Positions 1,457 through 40,622 of a stretch of DNA of 48,480 bases are shown here, in pieces (positions within the stretch are counted from its first letter, which is position 1; every line of letters begins with the position of its first letter). The translations under genes and the position numbers were made by a program. This stretch comes from Candidatus Kerfeldbacteria bacterium. Its GTDB lineage: Bacteria; Patescibacteriota; Patescibacteriia; SBBC01. Location: assembly GCA_016204585.1 (NCBI GenBank), contig JACQKH010000051.1, positions 1-48,480 of the forward strand, read 5' to 3'. The notes beneath the pieces were generated by a model. The model ran no database searches. It saw nothing but the letters and a program-made list of their open reading frames with translations, and was not told where the DNA came from.

Positions 1457-1602
1457 TCTATTCAATGGGCGCGAACTACGTTCGCGCCCATTCAAAATAT
1501 TTGTTGCGACGCAGCTGCGAGGATCAGGGTGGCCCCGCTCAGCGGGGACGGGCCTCTAGGCGAGCCGCAAGGCGCGACACCGCAAAAGGGAAGGAGTGGT
1601 AT

Positions 1603-1647
1603 CGCCTGCCCGCCGTACAAAGTACCTTTGTACTTTGGCAGGCGGGG
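1603..1647 (+). repeat. GC-arm hairpin element (CCTGCCCGCC ... TTTGGCAGGCGGG) with an inner GTACAAAG-TAC-CTTTGTAC hairpin
   Basis: Arms at 1605-1614 and 1634-1646 are identical (10 and 13 nt) to the sequences flanking the nested tRNA-Val at 20250-20259 and 20152-20164, which lie on the opposite strand. Confidence 0.6.
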
Positions 1648-1680
1648 ACGAGGAAACCGTAGGTTGCCTCGCCGAGTTTT

Positions 1681-4104
1681 CTACCCGCACTTCGAAAACC
1701 CGCAATTGTGGCATTTCATGCAGCCCTCAGCGATCTCGAGCATGCTTCCGCAGTCCGGGCAGGCCGGCGCATAGCCGACGTTCGCCACCGACATTCTCTT
1801 GGCGGTTGTGACCGCGGCCGGCGTCACCTCGGCCACCGCTGTCACGGAATCACCCTTCGGCTTCAGGTCGAGCTGCGGCTGTTTCCGACCTAAATGTTTC
1901 TGCAGAATCTTGGCGATTGCGTCAGGCAAGGACAGGATTTGCCCGCCGTCATGCCAAGACACGTCCGGCCCGCGGATCCCTTTGATCTGATCAACGATTT
2001 CTTTCGGCGAGATGCCGGAGCGCAAGGACAGCGAAATCAGACGGCAGATCGATTCGGACTGGGCCGCAAAGAACCCACCGTTCTTGCCGATGGTGGCGAA
2101 AACCTCGAATGGGCGTCCATTCTCGTCGTCGTTGATGGTTATGTAGAGCGAACCGTACGGCGTGTTCACTTTATAGGTCGTCCCTTTGAGAAGTTCTGGA
2201 CGGTGGCGTGGCCCAAAGCCGTTGGTCGTTACGACTGCTGGTGCTGGCTTCTCCTGGCCGACCAGCACGGTCTTGCCGGTGGTCAGCACCTGCTCGTCCC
2301 GGCTGCCGTCGCGAAAGATGGTCACGCCCTTGCAGCCTAGTTCGTACGCCAGCTCATAGACCTTCCGCACGTCCTCTTCAGTCGCCTCGTGCGGGAAGTT
2401 GACAGTCTTGGAAATGGCGTTATCAACGTATTCCTGGAAGGCGGCTTGCATGCGGATATGGTCTTCGGGTGTGCAGTCGGCGGCGGTTACGAACATCTTC
2501 TTCCACTTGTCCGGTATCTCGTCGAACTTCTGAATCGAACCCTCGTAGGCGATTCGCTCCATCAGTTCTGGCGAGTACCATCCCTCTTGCTTAGCGATCT
2601 CCTCGAACTTCGGGTGCACGTAGACGAGCGACGTGCCGTCCATGACCGTTTTGGTGAAAACGATGGCGAACAACGGCTCTAGGCCGGAGCTGCAATCAGC
2701 GATCATCGAAATCGTGCCGGTCGGCGCGACGGTCGTGCGGGCCACGTTCCGCATTGGCACGCCCCTTTTCTCATCGTCCGAACCAGCATAGTTGGGGTAG
2801 TTGCCGCGGGACTTGGCCAGTTCGGTCGAGGCGCTGGCGGCTTGGTCGGCGATGAACTTCATCATCTTCCGACCCATCTCCAACCCGGCCTTCGAATTGT
2901 ATGGAATACCCAGCTCAATCAGCATGTCGGCAAAACCCATCACGCCCAAACCAATCCGTCGGTTAGTCAAAGTTTTCTCGGCAATCTGCGGAATCGGGTA
3001 GCGGTTCATGTCAATGACATTGTCGAGAAAGTGAACGGTCTGCCACGCTACTTTCTTCAAACGCTGCCAGTCTACCGCGGCTTTGCCGGACTTTGTCTTT
3101 TTCACGAACTGGCCGAGATTGATGGAGCCCAAATTGCAGGAATCGTAGCCGGCCAGCCACTGCTCGCCGCAGGGGTTGGTCGCTTCGAGCACCTCCACAT
3201 GCCGAGCGGGGTTGATGGCATTGGCCCGATCAATGAATAGGACGCCGGGATCGCCGGTTAACCAGGCATGATGGATAAGGAGCTTCCAAATTCTCTCGGC
3301 GGGCAACTGCCCGGTCACGCTGCCGGTATGTGGATCAACCAGGTCGTACATCCCTTTTTTCCTCAAGGCCTCCATGAACTTCTCAGTCGCCGCCACCGAA
3401 ATGTTGAAATTCTTCATCTCGTTCAAATTTTCCTTGATGGTGATGAACTGGAGGATGTCGGGATGATCAATATGGAGCACACCCATGTTGGCGCCGCGTC
3501 TGGTACCGCCCTGCTTCACGATCTCCGTGGCCATGTTAAAAATCCGCATGAAGGAAACCGGGCCAGAGGCCACGCCGTGCGTAGTCTTCACCAGACTCCC
3601 TTTCGGCCTCAAGCGGGAGAAAGAAAAACCAGTGCCGCCGCCGGACTGGTGAATAATGGCCTGGTGTTTCAACGATTCGAAAATTCCTTCGATTGAGTCT
3701 TCGACCGGCAGCACAAAACAAGCCGACAGCTGCTGGAAGTCGCGTCCGGCGTTCATCAGGCACGGGGAGTTCGGTAGGAAATCACGACTGGCGATTAAAC
3801 GGAAGAACCCCTCCTCGGTTTTCGCCACTCTCGCCGGTGAGGCCCCATACCGCGCATCCGCTTGAGCGATGTTGTTGGCCACCCGCCGGAACATGTCGAT
3901 TGGCTTTTCCGCTGGTTTGCCGTCTTTCTTCTTTAAGTACCGTCGTTCCAGAACCTTGATGGCATTGGCGCTCATGTCGGCGAGAATCGAGTCGTCCATC
4001 AGCTTCTGATTTTCCGTTAGCGCCTCGGATAGGATCTTGGCAAGCTTTTTCTCATTTACCGACTGGGTCGAAATGAGTTTATGAGAGCGGGCTGAACCGT
4101 TCAT
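1681..4104 (-). CDS. nrdJ: Adenosylcobalamin-dependent (class II) ribonucleotide reductase
   Basis: N-terminus [34 protein letters not shown], catalytic-core motifs ([15 protein letters not shown]), C-terminal Zn ribbon [21 protein letters not shown]. Start set to ATG 4102-4104, 13 nt after the nrdR stop; the longer ORF-track start overlaps nrdR. Confidence 0.9.
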
Positions 4105-4117
4105 ACGATGCGAAATG

Positions 4118-4609
4118 TTAGTTGTTCTTTGTTCGTCGCGGATTTTTTGGACGCTGCCGACCGCGCTGGAAAAGCTGAAGCTCGTTCCAGAAACTCTCGG
4201 CATCCGTGAAAGACCGATAAACCGAGGCAAAACGGATGTAGGCGACCGGATCAACCTTCTTCAAACGCTTCATCACGATCTCGCCAATCTGATGAGAGGT
4301 GATCTCGTTCCGACCCCGGAGTTGGATATCCCGTTCGATGATGTTGAGGAGCCGCTTGAAGCTTTCGTGGGTAATCGGCCGTTTTTCGAAGGCTTTGCGC
4401 AGGCCGGTTTCCAGCTTTTCCCGTGAATAGGGCTCTTGGCGGCCATCCCGCTTAACCACAGTCAGGTTGAGGATTTCTACCTCTTCGTAGGTGGAAAAAC
4501 GAAATCCACACCTCAAGCACTCCCGGCGGCGGCGGATTGCCACTGCCTCGTTCACCATTCGGGTATCAGTGACTTTTGTGTCAATGTTGTGGCACGCTGG
4601 ACAGCGCAT
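4118..4609 (-). CDS. nrdR: Transcriptional repressor NrdR (Zn ribbon + ATP-cone)
   Basis: MRCPACHNIDTKVTDTR...RRRRECLRCGFRFSTYEEVE is the canonical NrdR N-terminus. It lies immediately upstream of the RNR gene. Confidence 0.95.
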   Translation of the reverse strand: MRCPACHNIDTKVTDTRMVNEAVAIRRRRECLRCGFRFSTYEEVEILNLTVVKRDGRQEPYSREKLETGLRKAFEKRPITHESFKRLLNIIERDIQLRGRNEITSHQIGEIVMKRLKKVDPVAYIRFASVYRSFTDAESFWNELQLFQRGRQRPKNPRRTKNN

Positions 4610-17793: not shown

Positions 17794-17806
17794 GTTGACC
17801 CTTGAA

Positions 17807-17899
17807 GTTAGCTCGTTAGTATATTAGCTCGCTAGCGCCTTTGGCGTTTAGTGATCACAAACGAGCTACACGGCGCAGCCGCTAACGAGCTAAACCGCT
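17807..17899 (+). repeat. TAGCTCGTTAG four-box intergenic element, copy A
   Basis: About 93 bp, roughly four-fifths identical by eye to 28106-28198 in the same orientation. Boxes at 17809-17819 and 17825-17835 (forward) and 17858-17868 and 17882-17892 (reverse complement). Confidence 0.65.
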
Positions 17900-17905
17900 A
17901 TATCC

Positions 17906-19311: not shown

Positions 19312-19968
19312 TTAATCTGAATACTTTGGCGACGAGAAAATGCTCAAACGCGTGACTGGCCACGCCCGCACCCAGGCGCGGCCGACGATGTTCCGCTTCT
19401 CCACCGGACCAAGGTACCGAGAGTCAAGACTGGAATCACGATTGTCGCCCAAGACGAAAAATTCGTTCGGCCCGAGCTTTACGTCCAAGGTGCCGTGGGT
19501 TCGCACATCCGGCGTGAGGTAGGATGATTCGTCAATGGTAAACCCGTTCGGGTTATCCCCGTTGTAAATGTTTACTCCACTGTTGATTATCTCGACCCGC
19601 TCCCCCGGCAGCCCGATTACCCGTTTGATGAGGAAATCCGATTCGCGGCGGGGGTTACGGATGACCACCACGTCGCCGCGGTTGGGCGCGTGAAAACGAT
19701 AGGAAACCTCGTCAATCACCAGGTACTCGTTGTCATAGAAATTTGGTTCCATTGAGGCACCCTTGACGTAGAACGGTTGGATCAGGAAGTACCGGACCGG
19801 AATGATGATGGCCAGCGCGATCACGACCACCTTCGCCACTTCCACCACAAACGAGCCGACCGATTCGGTAAAGCTCGGCACCACGTTGGCGTGGCGCTGC
19901 AGCGGTCGCCGCGGCGGATTAGAAAATTCCGGTTTCGGCGTTGTCTTCGGATTACTGTTCATTACCAT
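19312..19968 (-). CDS. lepB: Signal peptidase I
   Basis: GASMEPNF (catalytic Ser box), KRVIGLPGE (Lys box), GDNRDSSLDSR. Confidence 0.93.
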   Translation of the reverse strand: MVMNSNPKTTPKPEFSNPPRRPLQRHANVVPSFTESVGSFVVEVAKVVVIALAIIIPVRYFLIQPFYVKGASMEPNFYDNEYLVIDEVSYRFHAPNRGDVVVIRNPRRESDFLIKRVIGLPGERVEIINSGVNIYNGDNPNGFTIDESSYLTPDVRTHGTLDVKLGPNEFFVLGDNRDSSLDSRYLGPVEKRNIVGRAWVRAWPVTRLSIFSSPKYSD

Positions 19969-20051
19969 TTTTCACTACCTACTGTTAGTTTCCGATTTAT
20001 CAGACCTTCCTGGAGGAGTGAACCCCTCGGCCATCCTCTAGCCATCACTGC

Positions 20052-20100
20052 TGGCCACTGCCCCGCCCGCGGCGGGACGACCTCGCCGATCTACCCGCTC
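20052..20100 (-). pseudogene. 3' remnant of a third tRNA-Val copy (T arm replaced by a CCCGCC-GCG-GGCGGG hairpin)
   Basis: The 13-nt CGACCTCGCCGAT (20088-20100) equals 20198-20210 of the intact inner tRNA-Val. TGGCCACTG (20062-20070) equals 20174-20182. The 15-nt T arm between them is replaced by 17 nt of GC hairpin. Confidence 0.45.
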
Positions 20101-20112
20101 GCTGGTGGTCGC

Positions 20113-20297
20113 ACCTGGGCTCGAACCAGGGACCTTACGGACCCGCCTGCCAAAGCGGACTGGTGGCCACTGCTGGATTCGAACCAGCGACCTCGCCGAT
20201 GTGAACGGCGCGCTCTAACCAGCTGAGCTAAGTGGCCGCGGCGGGCAGGTGTGAACCGTACGCTCTAACCAACTGAGCTATGCGACCGTGGCGTAAA
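20113..20297 (-). tRNA. Interrupted tRNA-Val(CAC): two perfect halves separated by 108 nt at position 37/38
   Basis: 5' half (20297-20260) is GGTCGCA-TA-GCTC-AGTTGGTTA-GAGC-G-TACGG-TTCACA. 3' half (20151-20113) is T-CCGTA-AGGTC-CCTGG-TTCGAGC-CCAGG-TGCGACC-A-CCA. All four stems are fully Watson-Crick. Whether it is functional or a pseudogene is unknown. Confidence 0.55.
20171..20247 (-). tRNA. tRNA-Val(CAC), intact, CCA encoded
   Basis: GGCCACT-TA-GCTC-AGCTGGTTA-GAGC-G-CGCCG-TTCACAT-CGGCG-AGGTC-GCTGG-TTCGAAT-CCAGC-AGTGGCC-A-CCA is a perfect cloverleaf. Confidence 0.88.
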
Positions 20298-20438
20298 AAT
20301 TTGAGAAGCGCCCCCTGCCCCGCACTTGCGAGCGTTAACGAGTATAGTTCGGGGTAACCAACTGCTTGCCCCGTACCACCCCGACCTCTCGGCCGCGAGC
20401 TCGAAGCCGAGCGGGCATAGTCGAGGGGTTGGTGCAGG

Positions 20439-20451
20439 GAGCTAAGTGGCC
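20439..20451 (-). pseudogene. 5' remnant (acceptor + D-stem, GGCCACTTAGCTC) of the third tRNA-Val copy
   Basis: 13-nt exact match to 20235-20247, which is positions 1-13 of the inner tRNA-Val. Confidence 0.4.
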
Positions 20452-20675
20452 AAGCATCTTCCAGTGCCGTCAATTTAATAATTGCAATAATTGCTAAGAT
20501 AAGCGCAAAACATGGACATGATACCATCTTTTTTCAGAAAAATCAAGCTTCCTAAAGCAATACAGTTGATTTTGTGAACTGGGACGAATCAAAGAGCACT
20601 GATCAATCACAAAAGGGGCTATTGACGATAATTCCACGGCTACCCTATACTTTCCCCAACGGCACGCACTTACCC

Positions 20676-37239: not shown

Positions 37240-37385
37240 GCCGCGGTGGCGGAACCACAGCACTACGCGCTTCGCTTGAGTGCTGGGCGGGCTGGCAGAC
37301 CCCGCACAACGCCTCGCACGGCTCGGCGTATGCGGGGCAAGCGCGCACGACTCACCCCGTACCATGTAGGGTTCGGGGCTGTCGC
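37240..37385 (+). pseudogene. Decayed, insertion-bearing copy of tRNA-Leu directly upstream of the intact gene
   Basis: Colinear exact matches to tRNA-Leu: GTGGCGGAAC (37246-55 = 37443-52), TACGCGC (37264-70 = 37458-64), CGCGCACGACTCA (37342-54 = 37460-72), CCCGTA, AGGGTTCG (37368-75 = 37497-504). About 70 nt of GC-rich sequence lies between the D-arm and anticodon-arm pieces. There is no matching 3' acceptor strand. Confidence 0.45.
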
Positions 37386-37436
37386 TCGCAGTCATTCACA
37401 ATTACTCTTTAAAAAGTTGCAAAGTGTGCAGGTGGT

Positions 37437-37523
37437 GCCAGAGTGGCGGAACTGGCATACGCGCACGACTCAAAATCGTGTTCCCGTAAGGGATTAAGGG
37501 TTCGACTCCCTTCTCTGGCACCA
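37437..37523 (+). tRNA. tRNA-Leu(CAA), type II, CCA encoded
   Basis: GCCAGAG-TG-GCG-GAACTGGCATA-CGC-G-CACGA-CTCAAAA-TCGTG-TTCCCGTAAGGGATT-AAGGG-TTCGACT-CCCTT-CTCTGGC-A-CCA. Flanks GCAGGTGGT and ACCACCTGC extend the acceptor helix. Confidence 0.9.
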
Positions 37524-37622
37524 CCTGCATAACTTTACTAGCTGTCGGTTCGACGGAGTTTACCCCGCCCTGAGCTTGCCGAAGGGGCGGGGACCGGCGG
37601 CACCAGTCAGGAAATCAATACC

Positions 37623-40066: not shown

Positions 40067-40143
40067 TGGTACCAGGGGTGGGATTCGAACCCACGACCCC
40101 GGGCTTATGAGTCCCGTGCTCTAACCAGCTGAGCTACCCTGGC
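40067..40143 (-). tRNA. tRNA with CAT anticodon (elongator Met or Ile2), CCA encoded
   Basis: GCCAGGG-TA-GCTC-AGCTGGTTA-GAGC-A-CGGGA-CTCATAA-GCCCG-GGGTC-GTGGG-TTCGAAT-CCCAC-CCCTGGT-A-CCA. G1-U72 wobble and an A31-G39 mismatch are noted. Confidence 0.82.
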
Positions 40144-40418
40144 ACGACCTGATTTGTATCAGCTTTTAGGTAGTTGCGCAACATTTGTTTAAGCGTGGTT
40201 TTGCCTTTGGTGGTTTTGAAGTAGCGCCCGCGGCGTTCGGCGTCCTGTTTGTTGAGAAATGATTCAAAGAAGATCGACGCGAATGGTCGGCGCTGCGCGG
40301 TTGAAACTGTTTGTCCAGCATTGTGCCAGCGTAAACGATTAACTACATTTTGACTCAGGCCGATGTAGAATTTCCGGTCTTTGAGACTTTGTAATGCATA
40401 CACATGAAACCATGGCAT
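40134..40418 (-). CDS. GIY-YIG nuclease family protein (YhbQ/UPF0213-like)
   Basis: MPWFHVYALQSLKDRKFYIGLSQNVVNRLRWHN...RRPF...E.F....A..RE.Y.K. AGGAGA lies 6 nt upstream of ATG 40416-40418. The last 10 nt, including the TAG stop, lie inside the tRNA at 40067-40143. Confidence 0.85.
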   Translation of the reverse strand: MPWFHVYALQSLKDRKFYIGLSQNVVNRLRWHNAGQTVSTAQRRPFASIFFESFLNKQDAERRGRYFKTTKGKTTLKQMLRNYLKADTNQVVPG

Positions 40419-40550
40419 GGTATATCTCCTAGTGCCACCGAATGTCTTGTTGTTGCCATGTACCATTCGTCTAGCCCCGTTCATTACCTTAGCAACCCCA
40501 GTTTTTAAGATGTTGCGCCAGCAATGAACCTGAGCGAAGCGAATGGTTCA

Positions 40551-40622
40551 TTGCGGGAGGGGGATTTGCACCCCCGACCTCCGGATTATGAGCCCGGCGA
40601 GCTGCTACTGCTCCATCCCGCG
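40551..40622 (-). tRNA. Initiator-type tRNA-Met(CAT), atypical D and T loops, no encoded CCA
   Basis: CGCGGGA-TG-GAGC-AGTAGCA-GCTC-G-CCGGG-CTCATAA-TCCGG-AGGTC-GGGGG-TGCAAAT-CCCCC-TCCCGCA-A. C1xA72 mismatch and a GGG run in the anticodon stem, as in bacterial tRNA-fMet. The sequence is close to E. coli metY/Z along its whole length. Confidence 0.72.

Follow-up and report, generated by a model that had tools for sequence, protein, structure and literature searches.

The window analyzed here is a 48,480-nucleotide (nt) stretch of a Candidatus Kerfeldbacteria genome (assembly GCA_016204585.1, contig JACQKH010000051.1, positions 1 to 48,480 of the forward strand), and it contains three tRNA-Val(CAC) genes stacked one in another on the minus strand. 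We refer to these copies as A, B, and A', with A lying inside B and B inside the decayed A'. The nest is placed 3' of a single predicted promoter and 5' of lepB-hisS, with the lepB start at 19968. The organism belongs to the candidate phyla radiation (CPR), and HisRS of the window has its closest matches, at 55-57% identity, in Candidatus Kerfeldbacteria. Gene order in the relatives is Pth, LCP, and then, divergently, the tRNA locus, LepB, HisRS, HIT, S21, and YqeY. About a dozen related loci from other genomes, designated by L-numbers, form the basis of the comparison; syntenic loci were reached via LepB homologs at ~70% identity, and a HisRS scan of genome contigs yielded two useful Kerfeldbacteria loci, L001 and L002. 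The features of the nest, from 5' to 3' on the minus strand, are the following.

20518-20546, minus strand: predicted sigma-70-type promoter, TTGATT-17-TATCAT (TG-extended), which would drive the nest and lepB.
20439-20451, minus strand: 5' piece of A', GGCCACTTAGCTC, with the acceptor 5' strand, U8-A9, and the D-stem 5' strand; equal to positions 1-13 of A.
20369-20438, minus strand: GC-rich compound hairpin 1 in the D loop of A', with the foot CCCTGCACCA...TGGTACGGGG.
20355-20364, minus strand: D-loop remnant of A', CAGTTGGTTA, between two hairpins (repeat family D3 in the self-comparison).
20318-20354, minus strand: GC-rich hairpin 2 (CCCCG...CGGGG) in the D loop of A'.
20302-20317, minus strand: CAGG, then GGGCGC, then TTCTCA, read against L081, L085, and L086 (GAGCGC there).
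20288-20301, minus strand: leader of B, AATTTTTACGCCAC; GCGCTTCTCAAATTTTTACGCCAC is 24/24 identical in L081.
20250-20287, minus strand: 5' half of B, ending at A37; 38/38 identical to B of L081.
20238-20249, minus strand: left arm of the inner cassette, 12 nt, CCTGCCCGCCGC, which pairs with the right arm.
20161-20237, minus strand: A, an intact tRNA-Val(CAC) with encoded CCA (ARAGORN; Rfam tRNA, 69.5 bits), presumed to be the working gene.
20142-20160, minus strand: right arm of the inner cassette, 19 nt, GTCCGCTTTGGCAGGCGGG, with the ...GCAGGCGGG|T38 junction shared with L084, L087, and L115.
20103-20141, minus strand: 3' half of B, from U38 to CCA; 39/39 identical to B of L081.
20091-20102, minus strand: trailer of B, GCGAGCGGGTAG, 12 nt, whose GCGAGCG pairs with CGCTCGC at 20334-20328 (inverted repeat I3).
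20078-20090, minus strand: piece of A', ATCGGCGAGGTCG, from A37 to G49, with the anticodon-stem 3' strand and variable loop; 13/13 identical to A.
20061-20077, minus strand: GC hairpin TCCCGCC-GCG-GGCGGGG replacing the T arm of A', with homologous hairpins at the same place in L081, L085, and L086.
20049-20060, minus strand: acceptor 3' strand of A', CAGTGGCC, plus AGCA (ACCA in relatives); the full piece is CAGTGGCCAGCA (repeat family D6).

The insert in B is 108 nt long (20249-20142) and consists of the 12-nt arm, A, and the 19-nt arm. Its in silico excision turns B into a perfect cloverleaf tRNA-Val(CAC), which is identical at 77/77 positions to an uninterrupted B at the same site in L081, a sister genome with 74% HisRS and LepB identity. 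Since both halves of B are identical to the L081 gene, the insertion point can be placed between A37 and U38, where introns canonically sit. No target-site duplication is found at this junction. A and B agree at 60/77 positions and are separate alleles with compensated stems, and A agrees at 75/77 positions with the plain resident tRNA of L083. The intron mode of ARAGORN (0-300 nt) gave no call for B. A 99-amino-acid open reading frame (ORF) that a gene finder would call spans the nested tRNAs (20228-20527, minus strand) and is almost certainly spurious.

A preliminary description of this DNA, made from the letters alone, had arranged the pieces as A'(5')-B(5')-A-B(3')-A'(3') on the minus strand and had matched GGCCACTTAGCTC at 20451-20439 to positions 1-13 of the inner tRNA, and both statements hold. 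The two matches on the 3' side also exist but had been placed 10 nt too high: ATCGGCGAGGTCG is found at 20090-20078 rather than 20100-20088, and CAGTGGCCA at 20060-20052 rather than 20070-20062. Likewise, the GC-rich stretch between the 5' piece of A' and B, put at about 140 nt (20298-20438), actually measures 151 nt (20438-20288). Within the window, the 13-nt matches do not behave as a generic repeat: both 13-mers are confined to the shell and A. GGCCACTTAGCTC has only two exact copies (20451-20439 and 20237-20225, with 0.05 expected at up to 1 mismatch), and ATCGGCGAGGTCG has two (20200-20188 and 20090-20078, with 0.11 expected at up to 1 mismatch). Copies of CAGTGGCCA are at 20172-20164 and 20060-20052, and 13 nt is the longest exact repeat internal to the locus.

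That a third copy brackets the A-B pair was correctly recognized, but its treatment as a mere two fragments understates what is present. A' retains the acceptor stem, D-stem 5' strand, D-loop remnant, variable region, and 3' end; it has lost the anticodon arm, a GC hairpin replaces the T arm, and two GC hairpins stand in the D loop. Judged by its sequence, A' is the shell of a host gene rather than two stray fragments. Between hairpin 2 and the leader of B, we read GGGCGC as the remnant of the A' D-stem 3' strand, and TTCTCA is possibly a remnant of the anticodon loop TTCACA. The foot of hairpin 1 is found also in L081 and L086, and the D-loop remnant has counterparts in L086 (CAGCTGGTTAG) and L111 (CAGCTGGTAAAG). 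The CCCGCC/GGCGGG motif, thought to mark every junction, does occur at both arms around A and in the A' T-arm hairpin, but the junctions between B and A' carry AATTTTTACGCCAC and GCGAGCGGGTAG instead. The core of that hairpin (CCCGCC-GCG-GGCGGG, 20076-20062) appears to us to resemble the inner part of the cassette arms closed on itself. A reading of the CCCCGC..GCGGGG hairpins as CRISPR repeats was rejected, as there is no array.

The same shell is found in L081 and L085, where it encloses an uninterrupted B. On its 5' side these loci have GGCC(A/G)(C/T)TTAGCTC, at least one hairpin with a CCCCG...CGGGG foot, and GAGCGC, followed by the leader, B, and the trailer; on the 3' side they have CAGAGGTCG, a hairpin TCCCGCC-ACC-GGGC(C/G)G(G/T)A, and then CAGT(G/C)GCCACCA. 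Since both hold the A' shell with B uninterrupted, the insertion of A into B is a discrete event specific to the lineage of the window. A metagenome scan for the 3' motif of A' (GAGGTCGTCCCGCC N9-13 CAGNSGCCA) returned only 5 chance matches in GC-rich coding DNA, and the motif had no match in viral contigs. In L081, an additional piece resembling a tRNA 3' end, ...CAGAGGTCAAATCTCACTCATCCCCACCA, lies 3' of the A' shell (2403-2455) and may be the remnant of one more layer.

Nests of one level are present in seven syntenic loci of Kerfeldbacteria-like genomes, in which the cargo occupies either position 37/38 or the D loop of a tRNA-Val(CAC) host; in L086, L111, L115, and L084 the host is split in one of these places by a cargo tRNA-Val(CAC). 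The host in L086 is a complete tRNA-Val(CAC) except for the T arm, its acceptor and anticodon stems are those of the plain tRNA in the sister L089, and ARAGORN calls it once the inserts are removed and a T arm grafted. Its cargo, a third type of tRNA-Val(CAC) with a GC helix around it, sits in the host D loop. L111, L112, and L113, from three assemblies, have an identical nested locus with B inside a host that retains the T loop. In L115 the cargo is B, and after GCGAGCAGGCGGG the host resumes at U38 with its stem 3' strand and variable loop, continues through a T arm of normal form, and ends in the acceptor 3' strand; this host 3' half starts directly after ...GCAGGCGGG|T38. In L084 and L087, whose hosts have decayed further, this ...GCAGGCGGG|T junction is also present. 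The 3' junction GCAGGCGGG|T38 thus recurs with differing cargo and hosts in the inner cassette of the window, L084, L087, and L115. As a search pattern, a tRNA 3' end followed by GCAGGCGGG proved too unspecific, giving 16 unrelated viral matches.

A plain tRNA occupies the site in L083, L089, and L002, and probably also in L088, where the 3' half alone is visible at a contig end. On the HisRS and LepB tree nesting is patchy: the sisters L086 (nested) and L089 (plain) clearly differ, and L085 is nested, with only the tRNA 3' half at a contig end visible in its sister L088. Hosts show decay to various degrees. The L115 host has lost CCA and acquired one stem mutation, that of L084 is degraded further, and in L081 and L085 there are uncompensated mismatches in the T hairpins together with changes in the acceptor stem (two G.U pairs in L081, one mismatch in L085). 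The cargo of L084 is chimeric, with the acceptor stem and T arm of B and the anticodon arm of A, indicating that A and B types do recombine. This comparison of syntenic loci supports the earlier proposal of repeated insertion into tRNA-Val by something bearing a fresh tRNA-Val. An argument for horizontal spread, based on the better conservation of B-type cargo (73-77/77) compared with A-type residents (63-75/77), was dropped as weak, since A of the window and the L083 tRNA also agree at 75/77.

Short-read contigs of L088, L113, L114, and L115 end within the tRNA-Val locus, that of L088 exactly at A37, an indication that assemblies are broken here by internal repeats or by insertion polymorphism. 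In the complete chromosome CP181398.1 of a distant Kerfeldbacteria genome (L001, locus 34% GC; 3954-4086 and 4230-4285), the tRNA-Val(CAC) is a cloverleaf apart from a 62-nt GC-rich insert of two hairpins in the D loop. Next to it is a tRNA-Val(GAC), which is followed on its 3' side by a relic of its own 3' part, with a GC hairpin in the T arm. Relatives have an equivalent TTG..N17..TACAAT at the position of the window promoter. Just 3' of the -10 box, a palindrome-like motif, TTTGCGCTAA-NN-TTAGCC (GCGCTTATCTTAGC in the window, 20493-20506, minus strand), is conserved in L081, L083-L087, L089, and L111, whether nested or not; it is a possible operator, or else an element at the 5' end of the tRNA-lepB transcript.

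The earlier description spoke of insertion into tRNA-Val genes, yet nesting is not specific to valine, since a tRNA-Leu locus in the window is built alike. Its features are these.

37240-37605, plus strand: nest of an intact tRNA-Leu(CAA) (37437-37523) in older, diverged tRNA-Leu remnants, collinear.
37240-37255, plus strand: older tRNA-Leu positions 1-16, GCCGCGGTGGCGGAAC.
37342-37354, plus strand: older tRNA-Leu positions 24-36, CGCGCACGACTCA, matching at 13/13.
37547-37554, plus strand: older tRNA-Leu T loop.
37593-37605, plus strand: older tRNA-Leu acceptor 3' strand and ACCA.
37300-37337, 37355-37378, and 37563-37592, plus strand: GC hairpins of the shell, in the D-loop and T-arm regions.

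CTGGCA stands between GCCGCGGTGGCGGAAC and CGCGCACGACTCA in this shell, and the shell pieces GGTTCGAC and ACCGGCGGCACCA are found 3' of the intact gene. The acceptor stems of host (GCCGCGG/CGGCGGC) and cargo (GCCAGAG/CTCTGGC) differ mostly by compensated changes. All 3 window sites of CGGGGCARG close hairpins in the Val and Leu shells. As a control, we considered 156 tRNAs in 1.05 Mb of fetched DNA, among which exact self-matches of at least 12 nt in unannotated flanks are limited to the Val and Leu loci of the window, Val(GAC) of L001, and Val of L084.

The arms around A have the form CCTGCCCGCC/GGCAGGCGGG and can pair in a 10-bp helix of 8 Watson-Crick pairs, one G.U, and one C.A. A second copy is present elsewhere in the window.

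1604-1647, plus strand: second copy of the arms in a non-coding gap, with a 22-nt filler instead of a tRNA, CCTGCCCGCC-gtacaaagtacctttgtacttt-GGCAGGCGGG.

Paired arms thus occur 2 times in the window versus 0 in 400 first-order Markov simulations, and none of the other fetched loci has both arms. The gap that holds the second copy (1496-1680, plus strand) is 185 nt long, GC-rich, and hairpin-rich, with another hairpin, CCCCGC-TCA-GCGGGG, at 1533-1547; it is flanked by a class II ribonucleotide reductase gene and a NUDIX-BtuR pair. Rfam reports nothing in it at E up to 10, and it could be another relic or a structured RNA. Neither 20249-20142 nor the copy at 1604-1647 has a target-site duplication.

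The absence of an integrase or transposase near the nest, remarked on earlier, extends to the full 48 kb: Pfam scans of the window ORFs found no integrase, transposase, other recombinase, homing endonuclease, or splicing endonuclease or ligase. With no mobilizing gene in 48 kb, mobility is deduced only from the pattern. There is no recombinase gene adjoining the tRNA, the neighbors being LCP, Pth, LepB, and HisRS in all relatives. A direct repeat of the tRNA 3' part at the element ends is also missing, as the host pieces are complementary halves, and we rejected an integrase attL/attR reading because nothing is duplicated.

A literature search on nested tRNAs, on tRNA introns in CPR/Patescibacteria, on bulge-helix-bulge motifs in CPR bacteria, and on Kerfeldbacteria yielded no account of tRNAs nested in tRNAs in bacteria. 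Bacterial tRNA genes have been called uniform, with group I/II introns, mostly at 37/38, as the sole notable exception (PMC4033280). Like those introns, the insert in B intervenes in the anticodon loop at A37/U38. A group I intron has a catalytic core of about 10 helices, is roughly 200 nt or longer, and is recognizable by Rfam Intron_gpI. In contrast, the insert is 108 nt long, 77 of which are tRNA, so that it is mainly a complete second tRNA gene; it has no ribozyme core, and the hosts in relatives decay. At E up to 10, Rfam reports no group I/II intron at the locus, tRNA being the only family besides artifact and chance matches; for the locus and 1100-2200 together these are one antisense tRNA-like artifact and two chance matches (YrlA, E=7.7; MIR2907).

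Archaeal tRNA introns, including those of multi-intron tRNAs and those showing intron transposition in Thermoproteales, are likewise short helical inserts found at 37/38 and at non-canonical places such as the D loop, and are similar across tRNA genes (PMC4033280). This nest, however, is in a bacterium and shows no bulge-helix-bulge, and the window encodes no splicing endonuclease. Its cargo is a tRNA that matches the host in identity, and the host seems abandoned instead of spliced. An archaeal pre-tRNA-Trp intron carries a C/D box RNA, so a functional RNA can be housed in a tRNA intron. A bulge-helix-bulge requires two 3-nt bulges 4 bp of helix apart at the exon-intron boundaries. Inspected by hand, nucleotides 32-35 (UUCA) can form 2/4 pairs with GGCG of the insert 3' end, there is no outer helix in register at the B/insert junctions, and the arms give a plain 10-bp helix instead, so that on inspection we rejected the motif. 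Exons should also persist, whereas the hosts in L115, L084, L081, L085, and the window A' are degraded and B of the window alone is intact.

Integrase-borne islands and prophages have attP/attB in tRNA genes, with the incoming DNA restoring the tRNA, and the nest is similar in that a tRNA gene is the target and tRNA function is kept by the incoming DNA. Such islands are kilobases long, encode an integrase, and duplicate only the tRNA 3' part as a direct repeat, unlike the inserts here, which are 100-170 nt, have no protein gene, carry a whole tRNA, and duplicate nothing; the host pieces are nested, with the 5' piece upstream and the 3' piece downstream. The arms CCTGCCCGCC/GGCAGGCGGG are short imperfect terminal inverted repeats, non-coding and in more than one copy (20249-20142 and 1604-1647), as in miniature inverted-repeat transposable elements and repetitive extragenic palindromic sequences. 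Two copies are seen in the 48 kb of the window. Unlike those elements, they show no target-site duplication, and one copy holds a tRNA precisely at 37/38. We know of no cognate transposase for the arm repeats. We class the nest with the intervening or mobile sequences of tRNA genes, as a variant that falls outside group I introns, bulge-helix-bulge introns, and integrase elements.

The history that we favor, with confidence only a little above even, is the serial insertion of small arm-flanked tRNA cassettes into a resident gene of the same identity, in which only the innermost tRNA works and its shells degenerate. Each cassette, built as [arm - tRNA - arm], would enter the resident tRNA gene at one of its loops. 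In a genome of roughly 1 Mb with probably one gene per anticodon, such a hit would survive only if it brought a working tRNA of the same identity, which would explain the constant match between host and cargo. The disrupted host would then decay and gather GC hairpins, while the cargo itself would become a fresh target, leading to the Russian-doll recursion. Host and cargo alleles have diverged with compensation in their stems, which suggests that the cargo came from another lineage and not from local duplication. Transfer between lineages would plausibly involve natural transformation, possible given that DprA is encoded in the window, and recombination in the 38-39-nt tRNA halves. The nest would be transcribed as one RNA from the conserved predicted promoter, from which RNase P and 3' processing would free A as the sole functional tRNA, with B and A' as by-products. 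We also entertain, as a tentative proposal that we would not yet back, that Kerfeldbacteria have an undescribed class of protein-less cassettes that bear a tRNA, home to a loop (37/38 or the D loop) of the cognate tRNA gene, and take over from that gene at its own site, giving recursive nests with shells maybe reused as scaffolds, or else that a form of splicing or processing is at work that is neither group I nor archaeal-type.

Several observations weigh against serial insertion of cassettes, besides the missing recombinase, transposase, and homing endonuclease. Two complete levels are seen in this window alone, and the left arms vary, being GC-rich in the inner cassette of the window and L084 and AT-rich in L081, L085, L086, and L111. 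In the window, A' agrees with A at 13/13 in its 3' piece, where L081 has ..CCAGAGGTCG, and this requires an extra step of gene conversion. An exact look-up of LepB gave no second, independent assembly of the organism. Parts of the A' shell are, moreover, far better conserved than the neighboring non-coding DNA between genomes at about 70-74% protein identity, among them the leader, which matches L081 at 24/24 nt, and GAGGTCGTCCCGCC, which four genomes have in common, and this could reflect selection on the shell, not decay.

Such selection is central to the strongest rival, which we nevertheless regard as unlikely: that the nest is a functional precursor with the outer shell selected as an RNA scaffold and with its insertion origin secondary. 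The scaffold, combining ACCA and the D-loop hairpins with an acceptor stem that stacks on a stable GC hairpin, would aid processing or stability of the embedded tRNA or separate it from the lepB-hisS mRNA. Shell elements are kept between genomes with only 67-74% HisRS and LepB identity although the adjacent non-coding DNA cannot be aligned, the acceptor stem and ACCA persist though the anticodon and T arms are lost, a D-loop hairpin occurs even in the distant L001, and the Val and Leu loci are alike in architecture and in hairpin foot, with all three CGGGGCARG sites in the two shells. However, L083, L089, and L002 manage with a plain tRNA at the site, the changes in T hairpins and acceptor stems are uncompensated mismatches with no covariation, shell content is strongly variable among genomes, and the minimum free energy z-score of the whole region is only -2.0. 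We give less credence still to one-off accidents, such as tandem duplication with deletions, template switching or illegitimate recombination of tRNA-Val paralogs, and chance nesting. The lack of a mobilizing gene and the chimeric cargo of L084, which shows recombination between two tRNA types, would agree with accidents, but independent deletions would leave no exactly abutting halves, as seen in B (38+39 = 77 nt) and in the L086 host, which is complete around its D-loop insert. Four loci share the 37/38 site and the GCAGGCGGG|T junction, the window holds two copies of the arms, and the cargo is a diverged allele of the host gene and no local copy of it. The exact fit also speaks against a relic of a tandem tRNA array: break points in such an array need not fit, yet those of B and the L086 host do.

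If the 108-nt insert were instead a true intron, removed for instance by RNase P and RNase Z with an RNA ligase joining B, both A and B would be functional. The insert at the canonical 37/38, the B exons without mutations relative to L081, and the ability of the arms to pair would accord with this, but we consider it highly improbable. The short insert has neither a group I/II core nor an Rfam match to one, no bulge-helix-bulge is apparent by inspection, hosts with like inserts decay in L115 and L084, excision of A leaves arm sequence on both halves of B, and no splicing enzyme is encoded in the window. Hardly credible at all is a chimeric contig assembled from strains with different alleles of the locus. 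The relatives' short-read contigs do end inside the locus, and a second assembly of the organism was not retrieved. Yet the junctions lie in unique arm sequence and not in k-mers common to A and B, no exact internal repeat exceeds 13 nt, like nests are found in independent NCBI, ENA, and Logan assemblies with L111, L112, and L113 identical, and the Leu locus 17 kb off has the same design.

If serial insertion of tRNA cassettes is true, it represents a new way of replacing essential single-copy RNA genes in place, with nesting that spans two or three levels, two loci, and several genomes, and it offers a testable route for intron-like tRNA inserts to arise without a ribozyme or splicing endonuclease. 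It also has consequences for annotation and assembly. Finders of tRNAs report only the innermost gene, spurious ORFs are called over shells, and short-read contigs break at nested loci, all of which bears on estimates of the tRNA complement in CPR genomes.

Two other features of the window involve tRNA genes or the genes next to the nest. A small ORF consisting only of a GIY-YIG domain (Pfam E=3e-10; 40134-40484, minus strand) lies between an elongator tRNA-Met (40067-40143), which its 3' end overlaps by 10 nt, and another tRNA-Met (40551-40622) whose CCA is not encoded. In the intergenic region between hisS and HIT (17794-17905, minus strand) there are nested inverted repeats of TAGCTCGTT/AACGAGCTA, and TAGCTC occurs four times.

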